Assembly: GCF_037902255.1 (NCBI RefSeq)
Contig: NZ_CP147990.1
Location: forward strand, 450,001-482,000
Reading direction: 5' to 3'
Length of the DNA stretch: 32,000 nucleotides
Source of the DNA: Candidatus Electrothrix sp. GW3-4
GTDB lineage: Bacteria > Desulfobacterota > Desulfobulbia > Desulfobulbales > Desulfobulbaceae
Part shown: in pieces, positions 5,793 through 26,323 of the stretch
How positions within the stretch are numbered: the stretch's first letter is position 1
Layout of the letters: each line of letters starts with the position of its first letter
Notes under the pieces: generated by a model
The model's input: only the letters and a program-made list of their open reading frames with translations
Told to the model about the DNA's origin: nothing
Databases searched by the model: none
Made by a program: the position numbers and the translations under genes

Positions 5793-6699
5793 CTGCCTCC
5801 CTCCTTTCCGCGATGGATATGCCTAATTTTGCAGCAATTTTATAGTTGACTTTGGTTTGAACCGGTGGGGCAACAAGAGCTGTCTGGTCGGCTCTAACAC
5901 GATGCAACAGCATGTCCAGAGCCAAGGCTGCAGCCTGCCTGGCCATCTCATTTTTATCAAATGTTACGGCGATTGTCGCCCCATGCTTGAGGAGTTTTTG
6001 AGAAAAGGTAAGCAACGGAATTTTATTCCTGATCGAAAAAAGGACGTAACTCTGGATTGTTATCTTGTTGGTCGTCGTGAGATCAGGCAGCATCCAGAGA
6101 AGATCCACCTTTCCCTGTAAAGAATGGATTAGGTCAGGAACTTCAGCTATGTTTTCAGTTGCCAGAGCGATAAATTCCAAATCAGGTCTGGCCGACTGCA
6201 ACTGCTCTATAATTTTGCTGCTTCGCTTTGGGTCATAGACAAGCCCAACCCGCTTTACTTTGGGGAAAGAGCGACTCATTTCGTCCAATTGCACCTTGGG
6301 TGGCACGGACAGGCTCACTCCGCTTACGGGCCTTGACTTGTCAATACTTGTTACTGGATGAATGACCAACAGGTGAACAATAGGAATATCAGGGGTCTGG
6401 AGTGCCACTTCCAGAGCTTTGGAACCAAGGGCAAGGATCAAATCAGGGTGAATGCTTTGTATTGTATTTGCGCTGTCCCCTTCATTTCCCTTGGTAATGA
6501 CGATTTCCGTCATCTGGTTCGGTTGTATGGATTTGAGACCTTGATGGGGAAGACGCTTATCAAGTTCATCAAGAAAGATATCTTGAATTTGCTGGTTAAT
6601 CTTACTCGCACTGCTCTTCAGTACCACTATCTCATAGCCACAGGCGCTATCCGCCAGGCTGAAAACTGAAATAATGATAAGAAGGAGATACTTATTCAT
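5785..6699 (-). CDS. periplasmic substrate-binding-like protein (ABC_sub_bind-type fold), first gene of the sensor operon
   Basis: Signal peptide MNKYLLLIIISVFSLADSA. Size and alternating beta/alpha pattern (YEIVVLKSS..., RVGLVYDP..., DLLWMLPD...) resemble periplasmic binding proteins often encoded with kinases. Translationally overlapped with the kinase. Confidence 0.6.
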   Translation of the reverse strand: MNKYLLLIIISVFSLADSACGYEIVVLKSSASKINQQIQDIFLDELDKRLPHQGLKSIQPNQMTEIVITKGNEGDSANTIQSIHPDLILALGSKALEVALQTPDIPIVHLLVIHPVTSIDKSRPVSGVSLSVPPKVQLDEMSRSFPKVKRVGLVYDPKRSSKIIEQLQSARPDLEFIALATENIAEVPDLIHSLQGKVDLLWMLPDLTTTNKITIQSYVLFSIRNKIPLLTFSQKLLKHGATIAVTFDKNEMARQAAALALDMLLHRVRADQTALVAPPVQTKVNYKIAAKLGISIAERREADE

Positions 6700-6758
6700 A
6701 AAGTAAAAAAGAAGTGTGTTCTCTGGTGAGAAAAGGCTTTTTACTATTCGAACGGGAT

Positions 6759-6776
6759 AAAGCTACTAGTAGCTTT
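6759..6776. promoter_or_regulatory. perfect 18-bp palindrome AAAGCTACTAGTAGCTTT in the divergent intergenic region (candidate operator)
   Basis: Read directly; self-complementary over all 18 nt. Lies between the divergent binding-protein operon and the TonB-dependent receptor gene. A second dyad, TGTAAA-n6-TTTACA, follows immediately. Confidence 0.3.
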
Positions 6777-7261
6777 GTAAACAAATATTTACAAGCAAAT
6801 TTTGCACCGAATGTTCGCCAGGATTTGAAGAAAAAAATATTCCTAGGAAAAAAATAAAAGATATATTGGATAGATTCGAGTACTCTTTCTTTTTAAATTC
6901 ATCATTCTTAAAAATAATGCTGTTGTAAAAAAAGTCCGATCTACCGATGAAAAAGGATACTCCCCTCGCTGTTTTGCTGCTCCTCACAACCTTTCTTGCA
7001 GTCCCATCTGCTCAGGCCAATAACACGCGCCTGGAAGACAAACTCCTGGACCTGTATTTTGACGAAGAGGAGCTGGTGGAAACAGCGACCCGTTCTCCCA
7101 AACCCATCAGCCAGGTGGCGGAAAATGTAACCATCGTCACCGCCGAAGATATTGAGGCCATGCATGCCCATACCCTGGCCGAAGTGCTCAACCGGCAGGC
7201 GGGAGTCTTTGTCGATTTCTTTGGTCAGGATTTCCTTGGAGACGCAGCTGTCCGGCTTCTA

Positions 7262-7290
7262 GTGCTCTGTCACGACTTAATTTTAGGGTA
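7262..7290. repeat. IS630 terminal inverted repeat (end distal to the transposase start)
   Basis: GTGCTCTGTcacgacttAATTTTAGGGTA. Matches the reverse complement of 8462-8490 at 24 of 29 positions by hand alignment, with outer 9 and inner 12 nt identical. Confidence 0.8.
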
Positions 7291-7965
7291 AACGGATTTT
7301 AATTTGCACCGGGCATCAGAAATTTTCATTTGCCACTCAACACCACGTTGAGTGTTATTCACATCGCTTGACCATGCGGCAATCTCTTTCTGTAACGTCT
7401 CGATATCTCCTATACGACGATTGGCAAGACATTGTCGAGTCATGGAGCTCAATTCGTTTTCTGCTATATTGAGCCAGCTACCATGTTTCGGTGTGTAACA
7501 AAATTCAATCCGGCGTACTAATGCACGAGCACGTTCAGGAGGAAAAGCCTCATAAAAAGCTCCCTTTGTATGGGTGTTGAGATTATCGCAAACCAACGTT
7601 ATCTTTTCACATTCTGCATAGCGACCTTCAAGGAGGCGAGCCACTTCGATCGCCCAATCTGTTTTAGTCCGCCGAGGACGAGCTGTGGCTTCACGCCAGC
7701 CTGAAAGAGGCTCGGTGAACATGAAAATACTGGCTGTTCCGTTACGCTCATACTCATAATCAACGCGTTTAGCATGATTTTTAGTTGCCGGGATAGGTAA
7801 ACGAGTTTCCTTTATCAGCTGAACTGGTTGTTCGTCCATACAAAGAAAAGGATGATTAGGATTATACGGTCTTTCATAAACCTCTATCACATCTTCCATG
7901 TTGGCCACGAATTCCGCATCGTGTTTTGGTGGAATAACCCAGTATTGGATTTTCCGGTTGTTCAT
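7270..7965 (-). CDS. IS630-family transposase, DDE catalytic part (orfB)
   Basis: DDE_3-type motifs: LCMDEQPVQL (D), ITLVCDNLNTHTK (D), HGSWLNIAENELS (E). Confidence 0.85.
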   Translation of the reverse strand: MNNRKIQYWVIPPKHDAEFVANMEDVIEVYERPYNPNHPFLCMDEQPVQLIKETRLPIPATKNHAKRVDYEYERNGTASIFMFTEPLSGWREATARPRRTKTDWAIEVARLLEGRYAECEKITLVCDNLNTHTKGAFYEAFPPERARALVRRIEFCYTPKHGSWLNIAENELSSMTRQCLANRRIGDIETLQKEIAAWSSDVNNTQRGVEWQMKISDARCKLKSVYPKIKS

Positions 7966-8420
7966 CCCGTTTTTTTTATTACTTGGCGAATAGTTTCATG
8001 GCTGATCGACGGAACTATTTCCAATTCAACAACATGTCGGGCTAAAAGGCGCAGTGACCAATTTGCGTATCCCGGCGGAGGTGAACCAAGACGAGTGGCA
8101 ATGATTTTAACCTCCTGCTCCCCATTCAATAGTTTCGGAGTAGGCGGGGTTGCACGTTTTTTTCCGTCAAGAGCCTGTTGAAAACCGTGCAAAACAAAAT
8201 TTTGACGGATGTTCTCAACCGTTTTTGTCCTACAGTTGAATGCTTCTGCTATCCTGCTGTCTTTCCAACAGGGGCCATTTGCATCAGCTTTCAATAAGAT
8301 GTGAGCACGACGGACTTTCTGGCTGCCCCCCGAAAGCTTTTTGATAACCTCCTGTAAATGACAGCGTTCTTTTGGAGTCAATTGGACAATGTATTTTTTT
8401 GGCATGAAATCCTCTTTCAA
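7962..8420 (-). CDS. IS630-family transposase, N-terminal HTH DNA-binding part (orfA)
   Basis: 152 aa with helix-turn-helix-like segments (LTPKERCHLQEVIKK..., IAEAFNCRTKTVENIRQNF...). Its stop overlaps the ATG of the DDE ORF (ATGA at 7962-7965). Confidence 0.8.
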   Translation of the reverse strand: MKEDFMPKKYIVQLTPKERCHLQEVIKKLSGGSQKVRRAHILLKADANGPCWKDSRIAEAFNCRTKTVENIRQNFVLHGFQQALDGKKRATPPTPKLLNGEQEVKIIATRLGSPPPGYANWSLRLLARHVVELEIVPSISHETIRQVIKKTG

Positions 8421-8461
8421 TTTTTTTTTCGGACAACATGCTACATTAATTTTAAATACGC

Positions 8462-8490
8462 TACCCTAAAATTTAGATTTTACAGAGCAC
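8462..8490. repeat. IS630 terminal inverted repeat (end proximal to the transposase start)
   Basis: TACCCTAAAATTtagattttACAGAGCAC, the reverse complement partner of 7262-7290. Confidence 0.8.
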
Positions 8491-10173
8491 TAGGGTCCCA
8501 GCGACATCATGTGTTATTGCTCCTTGACGGGGTGCGCTTAAACCTTAACTCAAACGGCAGAGCCTTAACCCATTTTATCCCTCTCGGCATTATCAAGCGT
8601 ATTGAGATCATCAAAGGCGCGGCCTCTTCCAGCTGGGGCTCTGCCCTTGGTGGCGTGATCAATATTATCACCAAGGATGTCGGGAAGTCCAAGCGCCCCA
8701 CCGGTAATGTCCATGTCAGTTATGGCAAGAGGAACAGCCGTGATGTTGCAGCCGATGTGGCTGGCAAGGTGAAGGCCTTGGGCTATTATTTCCATGGCGG
8801 CAATATTGATTCGGAGGGGCTACGCCTTGACCGCTATGCTGAAAGAGATTCCGTTTACTGCAAAATGCAGCTTGAATTGCCCCACACCTCGCGCCTGACA
8901 GCTACCGCTGGCTCCAGTGATCCCTTTTATAAAAACCTTGACTGGCAGGATGCCTGGGGAATTACCGATCTCAATCTCTATACAGATGTTGAAAATCGAA
9001 ATTTCTGGGGCACCCTCTATTTTGATACCGAAATAACACAAGAGGTCACTCTCCATCTCTCTGGGCAGTATTTTGACAATTCCTATGCTGCCAACAGGCA
9101 TTCCTTGGGGACGGGGCTGGGTGGCTCCCAGGGTGAGCTGATCTTTGGGGAGAAATGGGACGATGAGGTTAGCTCTTTTATCGGTCGACTCACCTGGACA
9201 AGAGAATCTGTTATTGCTAATCTCGGTTTTGAGGCAAGCCGTAGCGAAATGCAATATGTAAGTCGATCAGGGGGCTTCTTTGATGGGCCATCATTCACAG
9301 AAGATGAGCCGGTCACAGAGGACCGGCACGGCGTATATGCTAATCTCACCTACGTCAAAGGTGATTTTTCCATTACCCCTGGCTTGCGTTATGACGACCA
9401 CTCCAATTCAGAGGAGACGGTCAATCCCTCTCTGGGCCTCACCTATCTGCTTACCCACGACACCCTTATTAAAGGTGCTATTGCTAAGGGGTTTTCAGCC
9501 CCTTATTTATCCTCCTCTTCCACTTCTCCAGCTCTTGAACCGGAAAATACCTGGACATACCAGGCTGGCATTGAAACAGGACGTATTATTCCCTCTCTTC
9601 ATCTCAAGGGGACCTTGTTTTATCACGATATTCAAGATGCATGGGATTACAATATGGTTCCCTGGGCCAATACCGGCACCATTCACCTTAATGGTTTTGA
9701 GATTGAGGCAAAAACTGCTGATTACCATGGTCTGAGCCTGACCGGCAATTTCACCTACGTTAAAGAAAAAAGTAAGGCGACGAGTACCACCTGGGAAGAT
9801 GATGAGACCTCTATCGCTAATCTTATTTTTTCTTACCGTAACACGACATATGGTCTACGCACAGAAATGGCTGGTCATTATTACAGGATGACTGATTATG
9901 TAATCAATGAAAAGCCCGAACATAGTACTGTTCTCTGGGATCTTCTCATTGCAAAAGACCTTGATATCTTATCCCCCGGTGGCGAAATTTACCTCAAAGG
10001 GCGTAATGTATTTAACGGCGATCAATATTTTGATATTGACTACTCCAACCCGCAGCAATGGATAGAGGCTGGGCTGACTTTCAAATTTTAGATTGACGTC
10101 TTCTTTACTCATCTGTTAGATTAAGCTATTGTACTCATTATGTTGCTCAACTTTACTAGCTTGGAGGTTCAAA

Positions 10174-10272
10174 ATGAAGAAAAAAATGGTCGTTCTCAGG
10201 AAAGGAAAAAATGTTAAAGCTGTAGCTACGGATGGCACTTGTTGTAAAAGCTCACCCTCAGCTGACAAATAA
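10174..10272 (+). CDS. small peptide, candidate RiPP precursor (MKKKMVVLRKGKNVKAVATDGTCCKSSPSADK, 32 aa), not in the ORF track
   Basis: Hand translation. GGAGG at 10163-10167 lies 6 nt before the ATG. Lys-rich N-terminal half, then a Cys-Cys/Ser/Asp C-terminal half. Followed by a terminator hairpin and then a radical SAM/SPASM gene. Confidence 0.5.
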   Translation: MKKKMVVLRKGKNVKAVATDGTCCKSSPSADK

Positions 10273-10344: not shown

Positions 10345-11655
10345 ATGCTGTTCACCCCCTACCTCACCGTCCACCGCCATCATTCCATCCCGGGACAGGT
10401 CCTGCTTTTTTCCACCAAGACCGGGGCCCTTGTCCTGCTACCGGAAGAGGATTTTACCGCCCTGCACAACGGGGAGACGGAAAATGAGTATATTGAGCCT
10501 CTCAGCGAAATGGGGTTTCTTGTCCAAGACCTGGAGGCGGAACACCGGGAAGTTGCCCGATATATGGAGGACATTAACCGCCATAACCCCAATCTGACCC
10601 TGGCAATTATCTTGGGAATGGAGTGTAACTTCGCTTGCAAGTACTGTTTTGAAGGGAAACAGAAGGGGAAGAAGGTGATGGATGACCGGACAGCGGATCA
10701 GCTCATCTCCTTTATCAAAGGGCAGTTCCGGCCGGGTAAGAAAAAGCTCATCTTACAGATCTACGGCGGCGAACCCCTCCTCTATACCAAGAGGATTATC
10801 TACCTGGCTGAGCGTTTGAAGCCCTTTATTGAGGAAAAGGGCGCAGAATTTACCTTTACTCTGATCTCCAATGGTTCCCTGCTCAGCGAAAAGGTGGTGG
10901 AGGAGTTGAATGAATGGGGCCTGGACGGTGTCAAGGTAACCATTGACGGACCACCTGAGAACCATAATCAGTTCCGGCCCTTCAAGTCTGGCGCTGGCAG
11001 TTTTGCTGTTATTGCAGGTAACCTGAAAAAGGTCTGCACCAAGACCAAAATTCGCCTGGGTGGTAACTATACCAGTGCAACATACCGGAATTTTGCCACT
11101 GTCCTCGACCTGCTTGCCCAGCAAGGCATAAGCCCGGACAAGATTGACCGGGTCAGCTTTAATATCGTCATGCAGGTCCAGGATAAAATTACCAGCAATG
11201 AATTTGTAGGAGGGTGCGCCACCATCAACGAACCCTGGCTGCGCGATGCTGCTCTCCATGTGCGGAAAGAGGTGTTACAAAGGGGGTATCCCATCGGAGA
11301 ACTTGGCCCGGAACCCTGTGCCGTTGAGATGGATGCCGCCTTTACTGTGCATTACGACGGCAGCCTTTATAAATGCGTGTGCTGGGTAGGGCATGAACAG
11401 TATAAAATCGGCGATATCTGGCAGGGTGTCACTGAAGACTACCAGGAGTCCCACCATCTCTTGCACTGGCAACGGGAAGAGAAATGCCAGAAATGCAAAT
11501 ACCTGCCCCTCTGCTTCGGCGGTTGTCGTTATATGGCCTATCAGCGCGACGGGCATATGGGGCAGGTGGATTGTCGGAAGCCCTTTCTTGATGCGACCCT
11601 GGAAAGTATGCTCTTGCAGGACCTCCAGTATCTGCACGGGCAGATAAGTGACTGA
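10345..11655 (+). CDS. radical SAM/SPASM peptide-maturase-like enzyme with an N-terminal RRE-like extension
   Basis: CNFACKYC (Cx3Cx2C) at about residues 94-101. About 90 aa precede it (LLFSTKTGALVLLPEEDFTALHNGE...), resembling the leader-recognition domain of peptide rSAMs. C-terminal SPASM cysteines (YKCVCW..., CQKCKYLPLCFGGCRYMAY, VDCRKPF). GGAGAG RBS before the ATG. Confidence 0.85.
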   Translation: MLFTPYLTVHRHHSIPGQVLLFSTKTGALVLLPEEDFTALHNGETENEYIEPLSEMGFLVQDLEAEHREVARYMEDINRHNPNLTLAIILGMECNFACKYCFEGKQKGKKVMDDRTADQLISFIKGQFRPGKKKLILQIYGGEPLLYTKRIIYLAERLKPFIEEKGAEFTFTLISNGSLLSEKVVEELNEWGLDGVKVTIDGPPENHNQFRPFKSGAGSFAVIAGNLKKVCTKTKIRLGGNYTSATYRNFATVLDLLAQQGISPDKIDRVSFNIVMQVQDKITSNEFVGGCATINEPWLRDAALHVRKEVLQRGYPIGELGPEPCAVEMDAAFTVHYDGSLYKCVCWVGHEQYKIGDIWQGVTEDYQESHHLLHWQREEKCQKCKYLPLCFGGCRYMAYQRDGHMGQVDCRKPFLDATLESMLLQDLQYLHGQISD

Positions 11656-12442: not shown

Positions 12443-13111
12443 TTACCTTATTTTTTTCCCTGTCTTTGTCGAGCCGATTTTACCGGTATGGGGACGGAAT
12501 TGGAGTTCCAGCGAGTCCCCACGCAACCGGATATCCACCGGCTCCAGTTGGACAAAGATTGGGGTGACACCCAGTTTTCCTGCCAGCGGATCCAGTTTAT
12601 CCAGAGGCAGGGCATATTCCCTGCTCAGACCATCCAGCAGGGGGGCCAACGAGGCCGCCGCAGGGTCCTGTTGCCGGGCTTGCTTATAAAAGGTTGGTCT
12701 GAGAAAAAGGGTTTTTCGCTCTCGATCATAACGGAGCGCGATGTCGCAACTGACCGGCAGGACCATCTCTCCCAGCTTGATCTGGATAGTCTGGCCTCCG
12801 ACCTGGGCATTGACGGCCATATTTCTGCCGCTGAGCTGTCCCTGGACAGCAATGACATTTTGTTGTACCGCAAGCCGGGTAATGGAGTCCACGACAAAAC
12901 TTCCTCGGAAGTTGCTGTTTCTCTTCTGCTGTTCAATGGGAAGAGGGAGGAGGCTCGTCAGGGCCTGATGCAGGGTAGGAAGGGGCAGGTTCAGGACGAT
13001 CGGTGGGCTCTGTACGGCCTGGGTCGGTGTTGTAAGCAGGCTGAAGGCGCAGAGAACGAGCAGGAATATGTATTGATGGCGGTAAGGAGAAAAAGGCATG
13101 TGCTCAATCAA
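12443..13111 (-). CDS. hypothetical secreted/periplasmic protein
   Basis: Signal-peptide-like N-terminus (YIFLLVLCAFSLLTTPTQAVQ) and globular composition. Preferred over the fully overlapping plus-strand ORF 12488-13126, which is Arg/Gln-rich and has no features. Confidence 0.5.
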   Translation of the reverse strand: MIEHMPFSPYRHQYIFLLVLCAFSLLTTPTQAVQSPPIVLNLPLPTLHQALTSLLPLPIEQQKRNSNFRGSFVVDSITRLAVQQNVIAVQGQLSGRNMAVNAQVGGQTIQIKLGEMVLPVSCDIALRYDRERKTLFLRPTFYKQARQQDPAAASLAPLLDGLSREYALPLDKLDPLAGKLGVTPIFVQLEPVDIRLRGDSLELQFRPHTGKIGSTKTGKKIR

Positions 13112-13510
13112 AAAAACTGTTTATAGGGGCTGATAATATCGGGAGATCTCTTTATCAGTCTTGTTCCGTTGTTTCGCCTATCCTACTACGTTTTTTCCAG
13201 AGTGCAACAGGCCAGACCGTTTCGAGGAGAAATATCCCGATATTGGAAGCAAGCTCACAAAAGCGCTGATGGTCGTGGTCGTTCTTGACAAGGTGCTGGT
13301 TGTCAAGAAATTGACCTGGCAGGGAAAGGATGCTATTTTGAACGGTGAGCCTGCTGCGTTGCATCGGAAGAAAGTTGTGCAGCCGCCGCTGCAGGCTTTT
13401 CGCTCGTCCGATGCCTCTTGTAAAAGCGTGGGGCACCGGGAAGGGCAACAGACAGAAAACAGAATCCGCTTGTAACAGCGAGGAGCCAACAACGGGCAAA
13501 GGGGAGCAGC

Positions 13511-14881
13511 ATGGCAGCAGCGCAGGTGGGTGTGAAATTAACCGTGACGTCGGAGTGTTTTCTCAGCGGGGCGCCAGAGGAACTCCAGGCCGCTATCCAG
13601 GAGCAGCTGACCGTGGATAATCCCAAATATTTGGCTGCCCAGCGTTATTCCCGTTGGCTGGACAAGCAGATCAAGCCAAAGCTCCATTTCTATCGCCTGG
13701 AAGGGGGGAGTCTGGTCTTTCCCCGGGGCTTTGGCAATCGGGCAGTACTTCTCTGTCGCCGTCTGTTGGGGGAAGATCCGGTGCTCATCGATCAACGGCG
13801 GAAGGTGGCGCCCATTAACTCTGATTTCCTTGGGGAGCTGCGTCCCTATCAGCAAGAGGCGGTCCAGGCCCTGACTCAGCACGCCTTTGGGGTGTTAGAG
13901 GCCGGGACCGGTTCCGGCAAGACGGTCATGGCCCTCAAGATGATTGCTGAGCGCAGGCAACCCACTATCATTCTCGTTCATTCCCGCGAGCTCCTGGAAC
14001 AGTGGATAGAGCGGATCGCGCTTTTTCTCAACATCAGGGCCGGGCAGGCTGGTGGCGGGCGTTATGAGCCCCGACCCGTGACCGTGGCCATTGTCAATAC
14101 GGCCCGGAATCGTCTGGACGATCTGGTCCCGCGCTTTGGTCATCTCATTGTTGACGAATGCCATCGGGTGCCAGCCAGCCTCTTTACCGAGGTAGTGAGC
14201 GGCTTTGATTCCTTTTACATGCTGGGCCTGTCTGCTACGGCCTTTCGTCGGGAAATCGGGATGACCAGGCTTATCTATAGCTATATGGGCGATCGGGTCC
14301 ACAGGGTGGATCCGGGAGTACTGGCAGAGACAGGCGCTGTTGTTCGGCCTGATCTTGTCCAGCAGGAGACTGCTTTTTTTACCCCCTATACCGGGGAATA
14401 TCCCAAGCTGATCAAGGCCCTGACCAGGGACCGGGCCCGCAATCAACAGATCATCAGCGATGTGGTGGAGAGGATTCGCCAAGGGGACGAGGGCACAGTG
14501 CTGTTGGTCTCAGACCGGGTGGCCCATTGTCAGGAACTGCTGAATGGTCTGCAAGAGGAGAGCATTATCGCGGAAATGCTCACCGGAAGTATTTCACTGA
14601 CTGCCCGGGCAGAAATTGTGCAACGGGTGCATAAGGGCAAGGTCCAGGTACTTTTGTCCACCTTACAGCTGATCAGTGAGGGGTTTGACTGCCCTGGCCT
14701 CTCCACCTTGGTGCTAACCACGCCGATTCGCTTTGAGGGTCGGCTTCTCCAGGTGGTGGGGCGGATCATGCGGCCAGCTGAGGGCAAGAAGGCCCTGGTC
14801 ATTGATTATGTAGATACCCGGATCGGGGTCCTGCACCGCTCCGGCCTGGCCCGGGCCGAGATGTTTGCGCGCTGGCAGTAG
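13511..14881 (+). CDS. superfamily-2 DEAD/DEAH-box helicase (ResIII/XPB-like core) with a roughly 110-aa N-terminal domain
   Basis: Q-like motif LRPYQQEAV, Walker A EAGTGSGKT, Walker B VDECHRV, motif III LGLSATAFRR, C-terminal helicase lobe (LLSTLQLISEGFDCPGL, GRIMRP). AAAGGGGAG RBS. Confidence 0.85.
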   Translation: MAAAQVGVKLTVTSECFLSGAPEELQAAIQEQLTVDNPKYLAAQRYSRWLDKQIKPKLHFYRLEGGSLVFPRGFGNRAVLLCRRLLGEDPVLIDQRRKVAPINSDFLGELRPYQQEAVQALTQHAFGVLEAGTGSGKTVMALKMIAERRQPTIILVHSRELLEQWIERIALFLNIRAGQAGGGRYEPRPVTVAIVNTARNRLDDLVPRFGHLIVDECHRVPASLFTEVVSGFDSFYMLGLSATAFRREIGMTRLIYSYMGDRVHRVDPGVLAETGAVVRPDLVQQETAFFTPYTGEYPKLIKALTRDRARNQQIISDVVERIRQGDEGTVLLVSDRVAHCQELLNGLQEESIIAEMLTGSISLTARAEIVQRVHKGKVQVLLSTLQLISEGFDCPGLSTLVLTTPIRFEGRLLQVVGRIMRPAEGKKALVIDYVDTRIGVLHRSGLARAEMFARWQ

Positions 14882-14905
14882 GTGCTGTGATTCCTGGATA
14901 GGGTT

Positions 14906-15946
14906 ATGATTTTTCAATGGCATATTACAAACCGGTGTAATCTTCGCTGCCTGCATTGCTACCAGCAGACCTATGAGGATACCAGCGAGTTTTCGCTGAC
15001 AGATATCGAGCAGGTTCTGGAGCAGATTGATCAATTCAGTACCAAGCACCCGGAGCGGGGGCGTATTCATCTCACCCTAACCGGTGGCGAGCCCTTGTTG
15101 TTTCCCCATCTTGAAGCCCTGATAAAAAAGGTGCATGAGCGAAAAACGATCCGAACTTATAGCCTGCTCACTAACGGGCATTATGTGGATGCCGCACGTG
15201 TTCAATTCCTGAAAAAGTATCCCCCTGCCTATGTACAAATCAGTTTAGATGGCACCCAGGAAAAGCATGAGATAATACGAGGGAAAGGGAGTTTTGTAAA
15301 GGCTGTCCAGGGGGTTCGCCAGCTGGTCGCAGCACGTATCAGAACGACTGTATCTTTCACCGCTACAAAGAAAAATTATAAGGATATATTAAGATTATCC
15401 TTTTTCTGTAATCGGCTGAATATCAATCATCTTTGGACCGATCGGGTGATACCGAGTCCGGGAGACGCGGAGGGGCTCTCCCTTGGACCTGATGAGGTCA
15501 GAAAATATATCTGGCTGTTGCGGCTGGCCGTTTTCATCAACCTGCATCATCCCTTTACCCACAATCGGATTTCTTTTGCCAGGGGCTTGCAGTTCCTCTC
15601 CTTTCCCCTCCAAAAGCCGTACCGGTGTGCTGCCGGAAGAACCCTGCTTGCTCTCATGCCCAATGGTGATCTTTATCCTTGCAGAAGGATGGAACATCTG
15701 GTGGGGAATTTTTTTGAACGTAGTATTTCGAAAATATACGAGACAAATGAATTGCTCAACCGCCTTCAGGACAATGCTCTTCCTGTCTGGGGATGCGAAA
15801 AATGCAGGCATGCGTGGTCCTGTCATGGCGGGCTGAAATGCCTTGCAAGGGCAAAGAATGGTGATCCCTTTACCCGGGATCCAGGTTGCTATGTTCGTTC
15901 AGAAAAAGTGAAAGGGGCAGTGGATGCGGTCGTAGAGAAGGTATGA
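14906..15946 (+). CDS. radical SAM/SPASM-domain enzyme with the cluster motif at the extreme N-terminus (no RRE domain)
   Basis: NRCNLRCLHCY at residues 9-19. GGEPLL SAM-binding motif. C-terminal SPASM pattern (YRCAAGRTLLALMPNGDLYPCRRM ... CEKCRHAWSCHGGLKCLA ... DPGCY). Starts 24 nt after the helicase stop. Confidence 0.85.
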   Translation: MIFQWHITNRCNLRCLHCYQQTYEDTSEFSLTDIEQVLEQIDQFSTKHPERGRIHLTLTGGEPLLFPHLEALIKKVHERKTIRTYSLLTNGHYVDAARVQFLKKYPPAYVQISLDGTQEKHEIIRGKGSFVKAVQGVRQLVAARIRTTVSFTATKKNYKDILRLSFFCNRLNINHLWTDRVIPSPGDAEGLSLGPDEVRKYIWLLRLAVFINLHHPFTHNRISFARGLQFLSFPLQKPYRCAAGRTLLALMPNGDLYPCRRMEHLVGNFFERSISKIYETNELLNRLQDNALPVWGCEKCRHAWSCHGGLKCLARAKNGDPFTRDPGCYVRSEKVKGAVDAVVEKV

Positions 15947-16047
15947 GTGGCGTCGGAGGAGGTTGTGGAGGAAGCTGAAATTTTTTTATCAGGTTTACCT
16001 CCCTGCTCCGGCGAAAAATGATCATAGGTTTACGCAGGTAAGCTGTT

Positions 16048-16479
16048 ATGGATGATTCGGTGAGGTGGGAAATCGCAAGAGGTGTGTTGCTCTTTTTCTT
16101 CTGTGAGATCGTGGTGGTGCAACTTTCGTATTTCATGACACCTGGCGTAAAAGGCCCAGCTTTTTTGCTGTATTATTTTTTTCTTTGGTTTGTGGTATTG
16201 GCTGTCGGAAAGCTGATCGGATCGAAAATGATGGCGCCTAGTATGCTCTATTGTTCCGCTGGGCTTGCTCGTATAATTGAAGGACTGGAGCACGGTATGT
16301 CGAACTTCCTCCTTTTGGTGCTTATGATGATCGGCGGCACAGTTGTATATATCGCTCTTACTGCTGATTCATTTACCTCTGGCGGTGGCTACGGAGGAGG
16401 CTGTGGCTGTGGGGGAGGAAGCGGTTGTGGCGGTGGAGGCGGATGCGGCGGCGGATGTGGGGGCTGTGGAGGGGATTGA
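16048..16479 (+). CDS. polytopic membrane protein with a C-terminal Gly/Cys repeat tail
   Basis: Three hydrophobic helices, then the tail SGGGYGGGCGCGGGSGCGGGGGCGGGCGGCGGD (7 Cys, about 23 Gly in the last 33 aa). From memory it resembles proteins NCBI labels 'TIGR04222 domain-containing membrane protein'; not verified. Confidence 0.65.
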   Translation: MDDSVRWEIARGVLLFFFCEIVVVQLSYFMTPGVKGPAFLLYYFFLWFVVLAVGKLIGSKMMAPSMLYCSAGLARIIEGLEHGMSNFLLLVLMMIGGTVVYIALTADSFTSGGGYGGGCGCGGGSGCGGGGGCGGGCGGCGGD

Positions 16480-16510
16480 GGTTGTTACCCCATTTTAAGC
16501 ATGGCCCAAT

Positions 16511-16543
16511 GAACGGATAATAAACGGATAATAAACGGATAAT
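16511..16543. repeat. three tandem 11-bp direct repeats (G/A)AACGGATAAT upstream of the CDF transporter
   Basis: gaacggataat aaacggataat aaacggataat read directly. They end 8 nt before the ATG at 16552. The period is about one helical turn. Confidence 0.8.
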
Positions 16544-16551
16544 ATGAATTC

Positions 16552-17487
16552 ATGGCTGAACTTCTAAGCCCGCTTCGCTGTAGCAACTCGGAAAAGCGTC
16601 GGCAAAAGGCGGAGACCGTGGTCAATGTCGGCCTTGCTGTGAACACAGTCCTTGCCCTGGTCAAGGTGTTTGCCGGGATTGTATGGCATAGCCAGGCCTT
16701 GTTGGCTGATGGTATCAACTCAATCTCTGATGTGATCTACTTTATCGCGGTCAAGATCTTTGTCCGGCTTTCCGGGAAGCCAGCAGATTCGGAACACCCC
16801 TATGGGCATCACCAGCTGGAGAGCATTGCTGCCCTGGTTATTGGTGCCTTTGTTATTACCACTGGCACGGCTATCTTCTGGGACTCTATCGATTCGGCCT
16901 TTAAGCTGTTCACTGGAGCTACGCAGGCCTATCTCATAGGACAATTTGCCATCTATGTGGCCTTGGCAACCATCTTGGTCAAAATCTTGCTCATGCTCCA
17001 GGCGAGCAGGGTCGGGCGAGAGACAGGGAATCTGGCTATCAAGGCCTTGGCCCGGGATCATCTCAATGATATCTTTGCCTCAGCCGGGGCGGCTGTGGGC
17101 ATCCTCCTGAGTAAGTCAGGCGCACCTTGGGTCGATCCGGTTGCCGGGGCAATCGTGGCGGTGATCATGGCAAAAACAGGCCTGGATATCCTCCGTGAGG
17201 CCTCTTCTGATCTCATGGATAACGTGCCGAGCGAGGAGCTTGCTCGTGAGATCTATGAGTTGCTTGAAGAGGTAACCGAGGTGGAGGCCATTGAAGATAT
17301 TCATGCCCATCGCTTTGGCCCCTATCTTGTGGTGAACTTAGCTATCTGTGTTGACGGGAATCTGACCGTCAGGAAGGGAGATGAAATCGCCGACAGGGTT
17401 GAGAACAGGCTTCTCGACGGGATAGAGATGCTCCGTAAGGTCTATGTGCATTACCATCCTTCCAAGAAGCTTGAGGATGCCCGATGA
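16552..17487 (+). CDS. cation diffusion facilitator (CDF) family metal efflux transporter
   Basis: Six-TM core with metal-site contexts (ADGINSISD, HPYGHHQLESIAALV) and a cytoplasmic C-terminal domain (VEAIEDIHAHRFGPYLVVNLAICVD). Confidence 0.85.
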   Translation: MAELLSPLRCSNSEKRRQKAETVVNVGLAVNTVLALVKVFAGIVWHSQALLADGINSISDVIYFIAVKIFVRLSGKPADSEHPYGHHQLESIAALVIGAFVITTGTAIFWDSIDSAFKLFTGATQAYLIGQFAIYVALATILVKILLMLQASRVGRETGNLAIKALARDHLNDIFASAGAAVGILLSKSGAPWVDPVAGAIVAVIMAKTGLDILREASSDLMDNVPSEELAREIYELLEEVTEVEAIEDIHAHRFGPYLVVNLAICVDGNLTVRKGDEIADRVENRLLDGIEMLRKVYVHYHPSKKLEDAR

Positions 17488-17765
17488 GACGGAACGTCGC
17501 CGCTCGTTATGAAGAGGAACAGGACGACAAGGCTGTGCTGGTATGTAGGCTGTGCTGGTATGTATTGACCTATGTCATGGCCGTATGGCGTATGGCCAGC
17601 AAAGGAGGAGGTAAACCTGTTTACACGATATCTGAGATGAATTACAATCAAATTAAAATGGCTACTAACCAGCTGGAAGAAGAGATCTCTTATGAAGAGG
17701 TACGTTTCAGTATATCCCCGTTCTTAGTGCTCAGGGGGAAAACGGGTGAGCCTATTGATCATTAA
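17484..17765 (+). CDS. doubtful ORF (93 aa), ATGA-overlapped with the CDF stop; contains a 17-bp tandem duplication
   Basis: No recognisable motifs. A perfect 17+17 bp duplication inside would shift the frame. Coding status uncertain. Confidence 0.2.
   Translation: MRRNVAARYEEEQDDKAVLVCRLCWYVLTYVMAVWRMASKGGGKPVYTISEMNYNQIKMATNQLEEEISYEEVRFSISPFLVLRGKTGEPIDH
17531..17564. repeat. perfect 17-bp tandem duplication GGCTGTGCTGGTATGTA x2
   Basis: Read directly: 17531-17547 equals 17548-17564. Confidence 0.9.
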
Positions 17766-18267: not shown

Positions 18268-20700
18268 ATGAAGATACAGACTGTTACCCCGGAAGAGGCC
18301 TGTCGTTCCTGTCATGCCGATGAATTCTCCTTTGAAACGACTGCAGAAATCGAGGAACTGACCCGGTACCTTGGCCAGGAGCGTGCCCTTGAGGCAGTGG
18401 ACTTTGCTATTTCTATAAAACAGCACGGCTTTAACCTCTTTGTTGTCGGCCCTGAAGGTTCTGGGCGCCATTGCGCTCTGCAATCCTTTATCCATCGCCA
18501 GGCCAGGGAAGAGCCCACCCCTGACGATTGGGGGTATGTCTATCATTTTGACCATCCGCATAAACCCCTTGCCCTGCAATTCCCGCCTCAGCAGATCTCT
18601 GTCTTTAAGCAGGAAATACATGAACTGATTGATGCCTTGAAGACGACGCTTGCTGCTGTCTTTGAAAGCGATGAATACCGGGCAAGGACTCAGGTCCTGA
18701 AGGAGAACCTGGGGCAAAAGGTTGATAAGATCTATAAGGAACTGATCGATAAAGGAAAAGAGCGCTCTGTTTCCGTTGTCAGAAACGAAAAAGGTGTTGT
18801 CTTTGCCCCACTTGATGAAGAAGAGCAGACTATAGATTTTGAAGCGTTTCAGAAGCTCCCTGAAGAAACGCAAAAAAAGATAGAGGCAGATATCGAGAAG
18901 CTGCATGGCGCATTGCAGCAGACAGTCCATCAGATCAGCCTGTTGACTCGTGACGCCAAAGAGCAGGAGCGCAGGCTGAAGCAGGAAACAGCTGCTCTCT
19001 GTGTTGCCCAGATTATTGATACCCTGAAGGCCAAGTACGCTGGCCAGGAAAAGATTCTCCGATATCTCAATGGGGTCGAAAGACAGCTTGTCGAAAATGT
19101 CGATGATTTTCAGGGCCGTTCCGATGCAGGTCCAGAGGCCATTATCTCGCTTGTTGCCCATCGCTCCCCCTTTGATCGCTATGATGTCAATATCCTGGTC
19201 TCTCATGGAGAGAGCGGGGCCCCTGTGGTCTATGAGGACCTGCCCACCTATCAAAACCTGCATGGCCGCATTGAGCATCAGGCCCAGATGGGGATGCTGA
19301 CCACCAATTTTTCTCTGATCAGGCCCGGGGCACTCCACCGGGCCAATGGCGGCTACCTTATTCTTGATGCGAGAAGGCTGCTGATGGAGCCCTTTGCCTA
19401 TGAAGGGTTGAAGCGGACCCTGCGTTCTGGACAGATTCGCATGGAGCCGGTGGAGCGTCTTCTTGGTATGATGAGTACGGTCTCCCTGGAGCCTGAGCCC
19501 ATTGCGCTTGATGTTAAAGTGGTGTTGGTTGGCGAGCCTATGATCTATTTTTTGTTGAGCCATTATGATCCGGAATTTGGCTCGCTGTTCAAGGTGCAGG
19601 CGGATTTTGAACACGATATAGAGAGAACAGCGGCGAGTCAGCAGCAGTATGCAGCCCTCCTTGCTGGTCTTGTCCAGGAGAACAAACTCTTGCCCCTGCA
19701 TAAGAGCGCAGTGGCCCGGGTCATTGATGAGGCAGCCCGCCATGCGAGCGACAACACAAAGCTCTCTCTCCATATCAGAAAGGTTGCTGACCTGATCAAA
19801 GAAGCGGATTATCTGGCCGGAAAAAGGCAGGGGGAACGGATTGAGGCCGAGGATATCGAGACAGCGGTGGCGGCCCGCAAACGCCGGGGCGCCCGCATCC
19901 GTGATCGTTTTTTTGCCTCCATTGATGACGGGCTCCATTATATTACAACTGAGGGGGCAAAAATCGGGCAGGTGAACGGACTTTCCGTGGTCCAGATGGG
20001 CGATAACGCCTTTGGTTTTCCCACCCGTATCACCGTCGTGACCCGACCCGGCAAGGGCGATATAGTGGATATTGAACGTGAGGTTGAACTAGGCGGTCCT
20101 CTCCACTCCAAGGGGGTGATGATCCTTGGTGCCTTTCTTCGTTCACGCTATGCCCGCAACATTCCGCTGGGGTTGCAAGCGAGTCTGGTCTTTGAACAGT
20201 CCTATGGCGGCGTTGACGGAGACAGTGCCTCCTGTGCCGAGCTCTGCGCCTTGCTCTCCTCTCTGGCCGAGGTCCCGCTCCGGCAGGATTTGGCCCTTAC
20301 CGGCTCAATCAGTCAACAAGGGGAGGTGCAGCCTGTGGGCGGGTTGAATGAAAAGATTGAAGGGTTCTTTGATGTCTGCGCTACCAGAGGCCTGACCGGC
20401 CAGCAGGGGGTCATTATTCCGGCGGTGAACCGTCGCCATCTGATGCTCAAAAAAGAGGTGGTCCAGGCTCTTGTGGATAACCAATTTACTCTCTACCTGG
20501 TAAACACGGTGGACGAGGCCATTTCCCTGCTCACCGGTCTTGAGGTCGGTGAATGTAACAGTGAAGGCCGCTATCCGCAGGATTCAGTTAACGCTCGCGT
20601 TGAGGCGACCTTGCTCCGTTTTGCCCGGGATCTGCGGGCCTTTGCAAGGCAGGAGAAGGGTGAGGAAGAGAACAAGGAAACAGATCAGGATGGCACTTGA
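18268..20700 (+). CDS. Lon-like protease (LonB/COG1067-type): AAA-like N-terminal region plus Lon S16 proteolytic domain
   Basis: GQERALEAV..., P-loop-like VVGPEGSGRH, then a C-terminal Lon domain (IGQVNGLSV, ELGGPLHSKGV, catalytic Ser context DGDSASCAE, Lys context GGLNEKIEGFF). Confidence 0.85.
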   Translation: MKIQTVTPEEACRSCHADEFSFETTAEIEELTRYLGQERALEAVDFAISIKQHGFNLFVVGPEGSGRHCALQSFIHRQAREEPTPDDWGYVYHFDHPHKPLALQFPPQQISVFKQEIHELIDALKTTLAAVFESDEYRARTQVLKENLGQKVDKIYKELIDKGKERSVSVVRNEKGVVFAPLDEEEQTIDFEAFQKLPEETQKKIEADIEKLHGALQQTVHQISLLTRDAKEQERRLKQETAALCVAQIIDTLKAKYAGQEKILRYLNGVERQLVENVDDFQGRSDAGPEAIISLVAHRSPFDRYDVNILVSHGESGAPVVYEDLPTYQNLHGRIEHQAQMGMLTTNFSLIRPGALHRANGGYLILDARRLLMEPFAYEGLKRTLRSGQIRMEPVERLLGMMSTVSLEPEPIALDVKVVLVGEPMIYFLLSHYDPEFGSLFKVQADFEHDIERTAASQQQYAALLAGLVQENKLLPLHKSAVARVIDEAARHASDNTKLSLHIRKVADLIKEADYLAGKRQGERIEAEDIETAVAARKRRGARIRDRFFASIDDGLHYITTEGAKIGQVNGLSVVQMGDNAFGFPTRITVVTRPGKGDIVDIEREVELGGPLHSKGVMILGAFLRSRYARNIPLGLQASLVFEQSYGGVDGDSASCAELCALLSSLAEVPLRQDLALTGSISQQGEVQPVGGLNEKIEGFFDVCATRGLTGQQGVIIPAVNRRHLMLKKEVVQALVDNQFTLYLVNTVDEAISLLTGLEVGECNSEGRYPQDSVNARVEATLLRFARDLRAFARQEKGEEENKETDQDGT

Positions 20701-20747: not shown

Positions 20748-21917
20748 TTAGCGTGGTTTTTCCTTTTGCCGAACCAGGTCACTTTTTGCATGGTGCGCAT
20801 ACCAATACGCCTTGACCCATCTCCACACCATCCGTGGATGCTCAATACATCGTGCCTTCCAATAGTGCTTCCCTTTCAGATGGCCATAATAGAGTTGCAC
20901 CCACCACCTGGACGGCCATAGGGTTTCCTTGGCAAGGGCTGGTAACCTTGTCCACGGTGTTTTTCGTATCTTCCGCAGGGGCCAGCCGTCAAAGGGGAGT
21001 CCGGCATGCTGCGGACGATCAGTTATATCCAGCTTAAGCCCTTCGCGGATGTGTTCAGGCCACGGCGTCAGGTGGTGCAGACAGGAAAGCACGTTAACGA
21101 GGATCGGCATCTCTTTGTGGGTGGCTTGCCAGTCTATCTTGTCATAGAATTTCTCAACAAGGGTCACCAGATCGGCGACATGGATGAGCCTGAACGGCTC
21201 ATAGGTCAAAGGTGCCTGAAATCCATGCAGGTAGATATACCATAAGCTCTCTTCCAGGTTGAGGGTACGGGCTCTGACACCGTTGATCGCAAACGCCATA
21301 GCTGTATGGTAGGACTTTTCCAGAGGCCACAAGGGGTATTGTGGGTGGAAGGGCAGGAGGTTGTGATGGACCTCCAGGCTTACCGGCAACCCGTCAATGT
21401 CCCTGCTCATCGGCGTAAGGTGGTAATAGTCCTCCGGGACAGCATGCCCTTCATCTGGCCGATAGCCAAGCTGCAAGAGAATGTCTTTCACCTCAGCAAG
21501 ATCGTCCTTGCTGACCAGGAGGTCGATATCCCGCATGGGGCGCATCCCGATTTCACCATAGGCGAAGTTGGCCAGGGCGATCCCCTTGACAAGCAGGAGC
21601 TCGATTCCTTGTTGGCAACAGACATGGACGACTTCCTCGATAGCCCTGTTTCTGATGGTATTGGAGCGCCGGTTGCGCAGGTACAGGCCCTGCAATATCC
21701 GTCGGTCATTGCGCGGTATGGTGCAGTCCAAGTCCAGTAGCCGGGTATGTTGATAGAGTAGGGGGGCTACACCCTGTCTTTCCGCCTCCCGGATCAGTTG
21801 CCCCCATGCGCCTCCCTGGCTTTGAAAAGCGGCAAGGGCTTGATCCAGCTGGGAGAGCATGGGGGCATGGCTCAAATTCCGGCAACAGAGTGCGAGGATG
21901 GTCCGGATATCAGTCAT
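20748..21917 (-). CDS. nucleotidyltransferase-fold protein (uncharacterised NTP_transf_5-like family)
   Basis: Motif GEIGMRPMRDIDLLVSKDD..LGY (G-x...DxD nucleotidyltransferase signature). Start moved to ATG 21917 (MTDIRTIL), preceded by GAGGA overlapping the upstream TAG. The track's longer form overlaps the kinase gene by 146 nt. Confidence 0.7.
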   Translation of the reverse strand: MTDIRTILALCCRNLSHAPMLSQLDQALAAFQSQGGAWGQLIREAERQGVAPLLYQHTRLLDLDCTIPRNDRRILQGLYLRNRRSNTIRNRAIEEVVHVCCQQGIELLLVKGIALANFAYGEIGMRPMRDIDLLVSKDDLAEVKDILLQLGYRPDEGHAVPEDYYHLTPMSRDIDGLPVSLEVHHNLLPFHPQYPLWPLEKSYHTAMAFAINGVRARTLNLEESLWYIYLHGFQAPLTYEPFRLIHVADLVTLVEKFYDKIDWQATHKEMPILVNVLSCLHHLTPWPEHIREGLKLDITDRPQHAGLPFDGWPLRKIRKTPWTRLPALAKETLWPSRWWVQLYYGHLKGKHYWKARCIEHPRMVWRWVKAYWYAHHAKSDLVRQKEKPR

Positions 21918-21924
21918 GGTTCCT

Positions 21925-22782
21925 CTAGCGGGCCAACCCGGTAACAAGATCGTCCAGCGCCTCCTTGATGCCTGCAAAACTGCTGTAGGTGAGCCGGTAA
22001 GCAGGCGTTGAGCGGGCAAGTTGTACCATCTGTTGAAAGCCGTGATCAGAGAGATTGCGTGCGTTAACATCGCAGGCCATCAGCAATGAGGAAGCCCGGG
22101 CTCCTGAGATCTTTTCTTTCCGCAGAGGTGCGCCGCTTTGATAGGTCGGAAAGAGGAGCAACGCGGGTGGGGCGGATATGGGGGTATATAGCGGATTGAG
22201 TGCTCTATGCGCCACCACGGCTCCCTGCTCGTCTTCGAGCAGGGGGACGGGAGGATTATTGCCTGGGATCAGTTTCTTGATAACCGCTACGGCCTGCGAT
22301 TTTATGCAGAACGGTCTGGTAAAAGGAATAACCTGATCCGGTTTTTCGGCAGGAAACAAGACAAGCTCGTCTGTCAAGTAGGAACAACCCTGAGCAGTCA
22401 GCCAGGCGGACAAGTTACTTTTCCCAGAACCGCTTGGGCCAGGCAGCAAGATGACCCTGTCCTTGCCCCGCTCTTGATAGGCAACAGCGCCAGCATGAAC
22501 AGCAACACCGGCGCTGTTGTCCTTGAGGAGGTTGAAAATGACCAGATCAAATACGATCGCCGCACATTGCACCCCGAGGCGGCCCGTGTACTGTGGCTCC
22601 TCGTTGATGGCAAGGGTGTATTGTCCGTTGTTCTGCCGGGAAAATGTCAGTCGTGCTGCCTCCTCTCCACCGCTGGAGCCATGCAGATCTGCAAAGAGAA
22701 AAGAGACAAAACGATGAACCTCTTTCTCTTCGGAGAGGATGGTGACCGTTGTTCCGGCAAATTGCACGGGATATTCCGCCAT
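21925..22782 (-). CDS. HPr-kinase-related P-loop kinase (HprK C-terminal-domain-like)
   Basis: Walker A LLPGPSGSGKSNLSAWL followed by YLTDELV. Size and layout resemble the HprK-related kinases encoded next to PqqD-like proteins. Confidence 0.7.
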   Translation of the reverse strand: MAEYPVQFAGTTVTILSEEKEVHRFVSFLFADLHGSSGGEEAARLTFSRQNNGQYTLAINEEPQYTGRLGVQCAAIVFDLVIFNLLKDNSAGVAVHAGAVAYQERGKDRVILLPGPSGSGKSNLSAWLTAQGCSYLTDELVLFPAEKPDQVIPFTRPFCIKSQAVAVIKKLIPGNNPPVPLLEDEQGAVVAHRALNPLYTPISAPPALLLFPTYQSGAPLRKEKISGARASSLLMACDVNARNLSDHGFQQMVQLARSTPAYRLTYSSFAGIKEALDDLVTGLAR

Positions 22783-22795
22783 GAGGGATTCGCTG

Positions 22796-23152
22796 TCAAC
22801 AGGGAAATGGTTCGTTACGCTGCCTTAAGCGGGCAATATCCTTGTCCACCAGGCTGGTGATAATCTCCACTACACCAGCCTGGATAGACTCTCTGCTTTC
22901 AGGATACGCAGCCATCAGGATATCGATAATCTCCCTGATGCTTCTTTTTCCGTCACAGAGTTCCCAGATCAGAGCGCCGGTCTCGTTCAGGTAGATCGAG
23001 GTGGTGAGAGACGGGTGATACACGGTAATTTCATTGTCTATCTTCTCCAGAAGATAACCTGCTTCCAGGACAACAATGCTGTCTTTATGCATCAGACGGC
23101 TCGCTAGCGGGAATTGCCTGCATGGAGAACTTTTTTGAACTGCTCCCGTCAT
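22796..23152 (-). CDS. PqqD-family (RRE-type peptide-binding) protein
   Basis: ITVYHPSLTTSIYLNETGALIWELCDGKRSIREIIDILMAAYP...VVEIITSLVDKDI matches the PqqD pattern (beta strands, then LN.TA..IWELCDG..S..EI). Its ATG shares a base with the upstream TAA (TAATG). An alternative start is M21 at 23092. Confidence 0.75.
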   Translation of the reverse strand: MTGAVQKSSPCRQFPLASRLMHKDSIVVLEAGYLLEKIDNEITVYHPSLTTSIYLNETGALIWELCDGKRSIREIIDILMAAYPESRESIQAGVVEIITSLVDKDIARLRQRNEPFPC

Positions 23153-26319: not shown

Positions 26320-26323
26320 TTTC

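Follow-up and report, generated by a model that had tools for sequence, protein, structure and literature searches.

The window analysed here is a 32,000-nucleotide stretch of the genome of the marine cable bacterium Candidatus Electrothrix sp. GW3-4 (contig NZ_CP147990.1, positions 450,001 to 482,000). Three neighboring open reading frames (ORFs) on its forward strand, all annotated in GenBank as a DEAD/DEAH box helicase, a radical SAM protein and a hypothetical protein, respectively, had been proposed in an earlier note on this DNA to form a single module. The rechecked ORF coordinates agree with the positions and spacing given in that note, with 24 nt between the helicase gene and the radical S-adenosylmethionine (rSAM) gene and 101 nt between the rSAM gene and the third gene, which encodes a membrane protein with a Gly/Cys-rich C-terminal tail. 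The features of the locus, in window positions, are as follows.

13511-14881, + strand: SF2 helicase ORF, 456 aa
14906-15946, + strand: rSAM/SPASM enzyme ORF, 346 aa
14936-14959, + strand: CX3CX2C motif of the enzyme (C11, C15 and C18, from the sequence motif), which binds the SAM-cleaving [4Fe-4S] cluster
15626-15889, + strand: SPASM region with seven Cys (C241, C259, C297, C300, C306, C312 and C328, from the alignment)
15947-16047, + strand: intergenic spacer of 101 nt, from rSAM gene to tail gene
16048-16479, + strand: Gly/Cys-tailed membrane protein ORF, 143 aa
16048-16380, + strand: the tail protein's membrane domain (residues 1-111), with 3-4 hydrophobic segments ('short form' scaffold)
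16381-16479, + strand: Gly/Cys tail at the C-terminus (residues 112-143) with the stop codon; candidate substrate

On the evidence given below, the real unit at this locus is probably a two-gene pair, in which the rSAM/SPASM enzyme would be the maturase and the Gly/Cys tail its substrate, and the helicase would be an unrelated, lineage-specific neighbor. We assign this reading a probability of about 0.7.

The enzyme belongs to the rSAM/SPASM superfamily by its cluster motif, its core domain and its seven-Cys SPASM motif, and it matches Pfam Radical_SAM with 84.6 bits (cut-off 29.5) and SPASM with 26.8 bits (cut-off 21.5). As the earlier note had read, the CX3CX2C motif (CNLRCLHC) lies at residues 11-18. 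The SPASM Cys are arranged as CX17C ... CX2CX5CX5C ... C, and six of them (C241, C259, C297, C300, C306 and C328) are invariant among 18 diverse homologues, with C312 conserved in at least 90% and the three Cys of the CX3CX2C motif nearly invariant in the same alignment. The AlphaFold2 model of the enzyme (pLDDT 83.9) has the rSAM barrel at its very start and is similar to the anaerobic sulfatase-maturating enzyme (anSME) over nearly its full length, which leaves no space for the recognition element (RRE) of the maturases of ribosomally made peptides that are modified after translation (RiPPs), in agreement with the earlier note. Foldseek matched the model to SuiB, SkfB, PqqE, CteB and anSME, SPASM enzymes that modify peptides or proteins. 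Because anSME alone matches over both full lengths (TM-scores 0.76/0.72), the predicted fold is a core plus SPASM domain without an RRE. Features of leader- or RRE-type maturases are missing, with no RRE in the model and no PqqD gene in the conserved neighborhood.

The closest matches by sequence in the PDB are SkfB and CteB. In the profile alignment to PDB chains, no added Cys is found between the first two SPASM Cys of the window enzyme, a pattern that resembles CteB and differs from anSME. Structural work on CteB reportedly found that an open iron of auxiliary cluster I (Aux I) binds the substrate Cys. Since the additional Cys is missing between the first two SPASM Cys, as in CteB, this analogy suggests that the Aux I iron of the window enzyme is also open for ligation by a substrate Cys.

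No NCBIfam model reached its cut-off for the window enzyme or for four other members of its family. The top match in all five was either SbtM (126-175 bits across the members tested, cut-off 350) or the rSAM of the ACGX system (121-158 bits, cut-off 400), and the window enzyme itself scores 126 and 121 bits, respectively; the mycofactocin, NirJ/Ahb and anSME models stay well under threshold. The window enzyme fails as a member of the SbtM family, where the alignment is limited to profile positions 201-356 plus the SPASM part and other members of its own family reach 131-175 bits, and likewise as a member of the ACGX family (window enzyme 121 bits, relatives 150-158 bits). A total of 2235 homologues were found at E<=1e-10, and those at about 40% identity span many phyla. 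The Electrothrix enzyme is a divergent branch of a large uncurated family with no characterised member, and it forms a long branch near other short-form clades in a neighbor-joining tree of the enzymes.

The tail of the third gene product, GGGYGGGCGCGGGSGCGGGGGCGGGCGGCGGD, has 32 residues including six Cys and ends in CGGCGGD. The protein has no Pfam or NCBIfam match, even at E<=1, and this includes the membrane protein family TIGR04222 (cut-off 43 bits over a domain of about 229 residues). When the tails were stripped, hhalign aligned the short form to the transmembrane (TM) hairpin of TIGR04222 with a probability of 83% and an E-value of 9e-6, a remote match. A low-complexity Gly/Ser/Cys C-terminus follows the last TM segment, with the same CGGCGG end as in the TIGR04222 long forms. 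The Gly/Cys end described in the earlier note is present; its count of three TM segments is uncertain, as a crude hydropathy scan gives three to four, and homologues disagree between three and four when hydropathy is combined with the positive-inside rule. The short-form scaffold is rare, with 13 representatives among 1.84 billion proteins, nearly all of which carry Gly/Cys tails. Three tandem short Gly/Cys-tailed paralogues follow the rSAM gene on an Electrothrix-like metagenome contig (L004:6930-7310, 7407-7844 and 7881-8339). One database representative, P0243, contains a frameshift inside the repeat; either instability of the GGN/TGY repeat DNA or its collapse by assemblers is conceivable.

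The distance between the two genes varies among relatives, from abutting genes in E. communis to 12 nt in the closest relative outside Electrothrix (L089). A promoter and terminator scan of positions 13000-17600, including the 101-nt spacer, returned signal counts at the level of shuffled sequence. No Rfam family reached its gathering score as a regulatory RNA or riboswitch near the rSAM gene or the downstream CDF transporter gene, and no tRNAs were found.

Pairing of the enzyme and the Gly/Cys tail across genomes

A profile scan for the rSAM family, with one genome per species, yielded 80 further loci from many phyla, and the pairing statistics refer to 86 loci in total, 78 of them outside Electrothrix. 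A tail ORF was defined by at least three Cys and at least 15 Gly, Cys or Ser among its last 25 residues, and was counted when the rSAM gene lay within 300 nt; all other ORFs of the same flanks served as the control in a Fisher test. Such a tail ORF, ending in ...GCGGGGCGGCGG, adjoins the rSAM gene at 57 of the 86 loci and at 50 of the 78 outside Electrothrix (odds ratio 49, p = 4e-41). The pairing recurs in Verrucomicrobiota, Planctomycetota, Nitrospinota, Desulfobacterota, Chloroflexota, giant sulfur bacteria, Kangiellaceae and others. The recurrence across many phyla supports the membrane-anchored Gly/Cys repeat, which the earlier note had called a plausible but atypical substrate, as the likely substrate of the enzyme.

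Unsupervised clustering of the flanking ORFs identified one dominant partner family, present at 52 loci, where its gene directly precedes the rSAM gene on the same strand at a median distance of 66 nt. These partners are membrane proteins of about 300 aa that belong to TIGR04222 ('near_uncomplex'), with scores of 100-130 bits against the cut-off of 43. Altogether, three scaffolds occur beside the rSAM family, namely the TIGR04222 long form, the short form with 3-4 TM segments, and peptides of 56-60 aa that consist of a leader plus GGGGCGCGCGCGCG. The short form (110-200 aa, sometimes with an N-terminal zinc ribbon) is found in the window and at six other loci (L005, L029, L034, L036, L044 and L089), and its hosts are Electrothrix, the L089 organism, Kangiellaceae, a Sedimenticolaceae metagenome-assembled genome (MAG), Opitutus and a Verrucomicrobiota MAG. 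The peptides come from a Poribacteria MAG and its relatives, where one or two of them lie upstream of the rSAM gene; they share the leader PRVLATYSKEELEExIRPHG and a GGGGCGCGCGCGCGAG-type core, and a gene for a HprK-related kinase-like protein of about 320 aa comes next. No NCBIfam model matched the peptides of L015 and L065. The partner scaffold follows the rSAM clade in the neighbor-joining tree, so that scaffold type and enzyme clade co-vary. Ca. Electronema sp. PJ, a cable bacterium from fresh water, also carries the canonical long-form pair (TIGR04222 protein at L017:5057-5977, rSAM at 6001-6990), where the rSAM is 42% identical to the window enzyme and the locus has no helicase.

The tails themselves consist of almost only Gly, Cys and Ser. 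Among 65 tails, CGGCG occurs within the last nine residues in 54, Gly precedes 321 of the 335 Cys (96%), and the median is five Cys with spacings of 3-6. The three scaffolds are unrelated or only remotely related to each other, and the Gly/Cys repeat is the sole element common to all of them. Because the repeat alone is shared, we infer that the tail is probably the substrate of the enzyme, and this is the main argument for the proposed pair.

The only other widely conserved neighbor of the rSAM gene besides the tail protein is a nucleotidyltransferase-fold protein, an accessory partner of the pair. Its gene (about 250 aa, ANT/AadA-like, with GS...DxD intact) lies upstream or downstream at 26 of the 86 loci. 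A hidden Markov model built from these 26 copies finds nothing in the 32-kb window. Examples of the peptides and of the nucleotidyltransferase-fold genes are as follows.

L015:5305-5481: Gly/Cys peptide of the 56-60-aa class, upstream of an rSAM family member
L015:5590-5760: Gly/Cys peptide of the same class, upstream of an rSAM family member
L065:4917-5099: Gly/Cys peptide of the same class, upstream of an rSAM family member
L005:4720-5439: nucleotidyltransferase-fold gene
L048:6996-7805: nucleotidyltransferase-fold gene

The helicase beside the pair

Gene 1 matches the Pfam domains ResIII, DEAD and Helicase_C and encodes an SF2 helicase of the ResIII + Helicase_C type, XPB/RadD-like, with the intact Walker motifs described in the earlier note (GTGSGKT at residues 132-138, DECH at residues 215-218). 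Its orthologues are 62-70% identical throughout Desulfobulbales. Within Electrothrix, the helicase is 84-89% identical and the rSAM 66-83%, and the better conservation of the helicase is as expected of a core gene. The gene order in Electrothrix runs from a 77-aa protein through a HIT protein and a protein of about 220 aa (- strand) to the helicase, the rSAM, the tail protein, the CDF transporter and a 123-aa protein. This synteny is gene order at the level of the genus and says little.

The reading of the earlier note, in which the helicase, the rSAM and the tail protein constitute a three-gene module, possibly an anti-phage defence system or one related to nucleic acids, draws on the same-strand gap of 24 nt and on the gene order, which is kept in all Electrothrix loci with enough flank. 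Outside this genus the arrangement breaks down. A tblastn search placed the helicase at Electrothrix loci alone and at no other rSAM locus (78/78 without it), so the gene-neighborhood check that the note had called for gives two answers, with rSAM/tail adjacency kept widely and helicase adjacency confined to one genus. In three non-cable Desulfobulbales (L086, L087 and L088), the block of HIT, a protein of about 205 aa and the helicase is kept and is followed by a group II intron reverse transcriptase and BipA, by BipA, or by HrpB; no rSAM lies beside the helicase orthologue in any of the three. Conversely, the closest relative of the rSAM outside Electrothrix (L089, 49% identity) is followed after 12 nt by a Gly/Cys-tailed membrane protein of 148 aa, and no helicase is present in the 139 nt upstream of it. 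Because the orthologues occur in neighborhoods without the rSAM, and the closest outgroup pair occurs without the helicase, the helicase is a conserved core gene of Desulfobulbales, beside which the pair came to lie in Electrothrix. The higher conservation of the helicase relative to the rSAM within Electrothrix also speaks against the three-gene module, which we regard as highly improbable.

A known anti-phage defence system was likewise rejected. PADLOC-DB gives partial matches to generic domains, the PbeA helicase core (84 bits) for gene 1 and the pVip rSAM core (76 bits) for gene 2, and none for the tail protein. The accessory character that the earlier note saw in the neighborhood holds insofar as an insertion sequence, a RAYT and a PIN toxin are present in the window; a defence-system signature is absent, with the generic cores in PADLOC as the only matches.

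Proposed chemistry and its alternatives

In the mechanism that we propose, the RRE-less rSAM would bind the flexible, unstructured Gly-Cys tail of the adjacent membrane protein directly. A Cys thiolate of the tail would probably ligate the open site of Aux I, and the 5'-deoxyadenosyl radical would then abstract the C-beta hydrogen of the Cys. The likeliest outcome would be the repeated oxidation of Gly-Cys units into 5-thiooxazole-type heterocycles, as by SbtM, with thioether cross-links in second place, and the product would be a membrane-anchored, sulfur-rich and probably metal-binding tail. Taken overall, a thiooxazole-type product is a tentative assignment at well under even odds.

The SbtM/SbtA system (TIGR04082) of Geobacter and Desulfobacteria resembles the pair in combining a SPASM rSAM with a Gly-Cys target motif in a related deltaproteobacterial-type lineage. 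The target of SbtM is a conserved -Gly-Cys(Sec)- motif, from which the enzyme abstracts the Cys C-beta hydrogen to form a thio(seleno)oxazole, with a loss of 4 Da, a band at 304 nm and the Gly carbonyl built into the ring (PMC9204691). A product of this kind is recognised by -4 Da per Cys, a chromophore near 304 nm and a thiol that is still alkylatable. Unlike SbtM, the window enzyme has no N-terminal extension of about 200 aa, and its matches start at profile position 200-201. The substrates also differ, since SbtM modifies one or two residues of a soluble peptide, and here the candidate is a membrane-anchored tail with 5-6 repeats.

The same substrate family has been linked to a different enzyme class. 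The MNIOs of the bufferins (BufA/BufBC) convert Cys to 5-thiooxazole for copper binding (PMC11626156, PMC12668002), and a 2025 survey proposed the Cys-rich tails of TIGR04222 proteins, mainly of Actinomycetota, as MNIO substrates; one third of the genomes with TIGR04222 have no MNIO, and an rSAM partner of TIGR04222 is not mentioned in the main text (PMC12452194). The pairs described here share with these MNIO (DUF692) systems the TIGR04222 family with Gly/Ser/Cys tails that are proposed to be post-translationally modified. They differ in the enzyme, as MNIO is an O2-dependent non-haem iron enzyme and the rSAM is O2-independent, and the window protein differs from MNIO-linked proteins in being a short form with no TIGR04222 match. 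For making membrane-anchored metal-binding tails, the rSAM family would offer a route that, unlike MNIO, needs no O2.

Three other systems share part of this arrangement. The ACGX system (TIGR04340) also combines an RRE-less rSAM/SPASM enzyme of about 340 aa with a Cys-Gly repeat target, and it matches over the full length at a sub-threshold score; here, most of the targets are membrane proteins, with (G)nC as the repeat in place of ACGX. anSME (PDB 4K37) has the same domain architecture without an RRE and near full-length structural similarity, and it oxidises a Cys of a protein substrate through C-beta hydrogen abstraction. It differs in that its model (TIGR03942) gives 68 bits against a cut-off of 349 and its extra Aux I Cys is missing here; no sulfatase motif C/S-x-P/A-x-R is present in the window tail. 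CteB/SCIFF and the sactipeptide and ranthipeptide maturases have the SPASM fold, and CteB agrees with the window enzyme in its Cys pattern from the first to the second SPASM Cys. Unlike the window enzyme, these maturases have an N-terminal RRE, leader-dependent recognition and small soluble peptide substrates. A literature search returned nothing relevant on Gly/Cys repeats with SPASM enzymes, on ACGX, or on radical SAM enzymes in Electrothrix or other cable bacteria, nickel included.

Several points weigh against the proposed pair of maturase and substrate, or against the chemistry proposed for it. About a quarter of the loci have no clear tail ORF, some of them on truncated contigs; several of these 'negative' loci are truncated or frameshifted, have tails with 1-2 Cys, or encode small peptides. 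In an E. marina MAG (L007:~7010-7350), the tail is shortened to GGGSDGGGCGGD with a single Cys. A periplasmic tail, as predicted for TIGR04222 in the MNIO survey (PMC12452194), would require the cytoplasmic rSAM to act before translocation. The nucleotidyltransferase is absent here, and the Electrothrix system may accordingly be incomplete or work differently. The sequence does not fix the chemistry, because SbtM is matched far under its cut-off, with a score close to those of the ACGX, NirJ and TIGR04053 models.

Among the alternatives that keep the pair, sactionine- or ranthionine-type thioethers, formed between the Cys sulfur and the Gly C-alpha, would rigidify the tail into a ladder, in the manner of CteB, SkfB and AlbA. 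The best PDB sequence matches to SkfB and CteB, the CteB-like Cys pattern of the Aux I region, and the presence of the PapB, StsB and CefB maturases among the sub-threshold NCBIfam matches are in line with this chemistry. It is weakened by the composition of the tail, in which nearly everything is Gly, Cys or Ser and the only acceptor carbons are those of Gly or Ser, and by the scores, as SbtM and ACGX outscore every thioether maturase. As far as is known, nearly all thioether maturases have an RRE and leader-peptide substrates, which also counts against this reading. We therefore place thioethers somewhat behind thiooxazoles, as a possible but less likely product.

The tail could instead be a metal or Fe-S accessory that feeds iron, sulfur or electrons to the rSAM at the membrane, with a small molecule, lipid or cofactor as the actual substrate. 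Cys/Gly-rich tails can bind metals unmodified, some RRE-less SPASM enzymes work on small molecules or cofactors (NirJ, AhbD and BlsE are among the matches), and a CDF transporter adjoins the pair in Electrothrix. Such a role is unlikely, given that the repeat also occurs on the 56-60-aa leader-type peptides, which are substrate-like rather than accessory subunits, that no other conserved gene accompanies the pair to supply a small-molecule pathway, and that the tails carry precisely the Gly-Cys motif modified by SbtM. Least credible of all is a housekeeping heme or cofactor SPASM enzyme (NirJ/AhbC/AhbD-like) that lies by chance beside a low-complexity membrane protein. The NirJ, NirJ1 and AhbC models do reach 113-120 bits, far under their cut-offs of 515-650 bits; moreover, the conserved neighborhood contains no heme or siroheme genes, and the tail partner is strongly conserved. 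The earlier note had named grouping with NirJ/AhbD-type heme enzymes in advance as a result that would tell against its proposal, and the window enzyme does not group with them (84-120 bits against cut-offs of 500-515).

The proposed maturation of the Gly/Cys tail also invites a bolder idea. The conductive periplasmic fibres of cable bacteria use sulfur-ligated nickel. Conversion of the Gly-Cys repeats into an array of sulfur heterocycles or thiolate ligands, a membrane-anchored 'poly-thiooxazole' tail that handles or delivers this nickel beside the MamM-like CDF transporter, is conceivable, and we consider it very unlikely.

Surrounding genes and implications

The remaining features of the window are as follows.

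1148-2935, + strand: 595-aa trypsin-like peptidase fused to an FGE-sulfatase (formylglycine-generating enzyme-like) domain
7270-8420, - strand: IS630-like element, DDE_3 transposase with HTH_32, from domain matches
10345-11655, + strand: geopeptide maturase, an RRE-bearing rSAM/SPASM enzyme (TIGR04280: 484 bits, cut-off 400)
16552-17487, + strand: CDF-family cation efflux transporter, MamM/MamB-like (Pfam Cation_efflux 155 bits, ZT_dimer; NCBIfam CDF 210 bits)
18268-20700, + strand: LonB/LonC-like AAA+ protease (AAA_32, LonB_AAA-LID, Lon_C, LonC_helical)
20748-23152, - strand: cassette of an NTP_transf_5 nucleotidyltransferase, a HprK-related kinase A-like protein and a PqqD-family protein, a HPr-rel-A-type peptide-modification set
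25627-26325: RAYT (Y1_Tnp)
26781-27173: PIN toxin

The CDF transporter adjoins the pair in 6-7 Electrothrix loci only, and its predicted function would fit a metal theme. The cassette, 4 kb downstream of the pair, was considered as a partner and rejected in favor of a separate system, as it is not conserved beside the pair in other Electrothrix loci. It contains the only PqqD gene of the window (22796-23152, - strand), and its HprK-related kinase A-like protein scores 96 bits, under the cut-off of 200. The same three kinds of genes flank peptide-type members of the rSAM family (L015, L065, L071, L081 and L039). The LonB/LonC-like protease sits between the CDF and 123-aa genes on one side and the HprK/PqqD cassette on the other, and a 557-aa ORF antisense to the protease gene is probably spurious. 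Just upstream of the geopeptide maturase, a small ORF (10129-10272, + strand) encodes ...MKKKMVVLRKGKNVKAVATDGTCCKSSPSADK, a plausible geopeptide precursor. The IS630-like element appears to split a TonB-dependent receptor gene, with a Plug fragment at 6947-7291 and the remaining Plug and beta-barrel at 8358-10091.

The modification of Cys-rich peptides by rSAM/SPASM enzymes is already known. The family described here has no curated model, yet it occurs in hundreds of species from at least 10 phyla. Its putative targets are mostly bona fide membrane proteins, either TIGR04222 or the rare short form, and 'RiPP-like' chemistry would thereby be extended to protein tails without an RRE. The helicase and defence hypotheses, which are spurious, are removed from the account of this locus, and both should be dropped. 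MNIO, which depends on O2, and rSAM, which does not, are unrelated superfamilies that may have come by convergence to act on one Gly/Cys tail, much like FGE and anSME. The pair gives a directly testable route to the tail modification of TIGR04222 proteins and to their function, perhaps the buffering of metals at the membrane.

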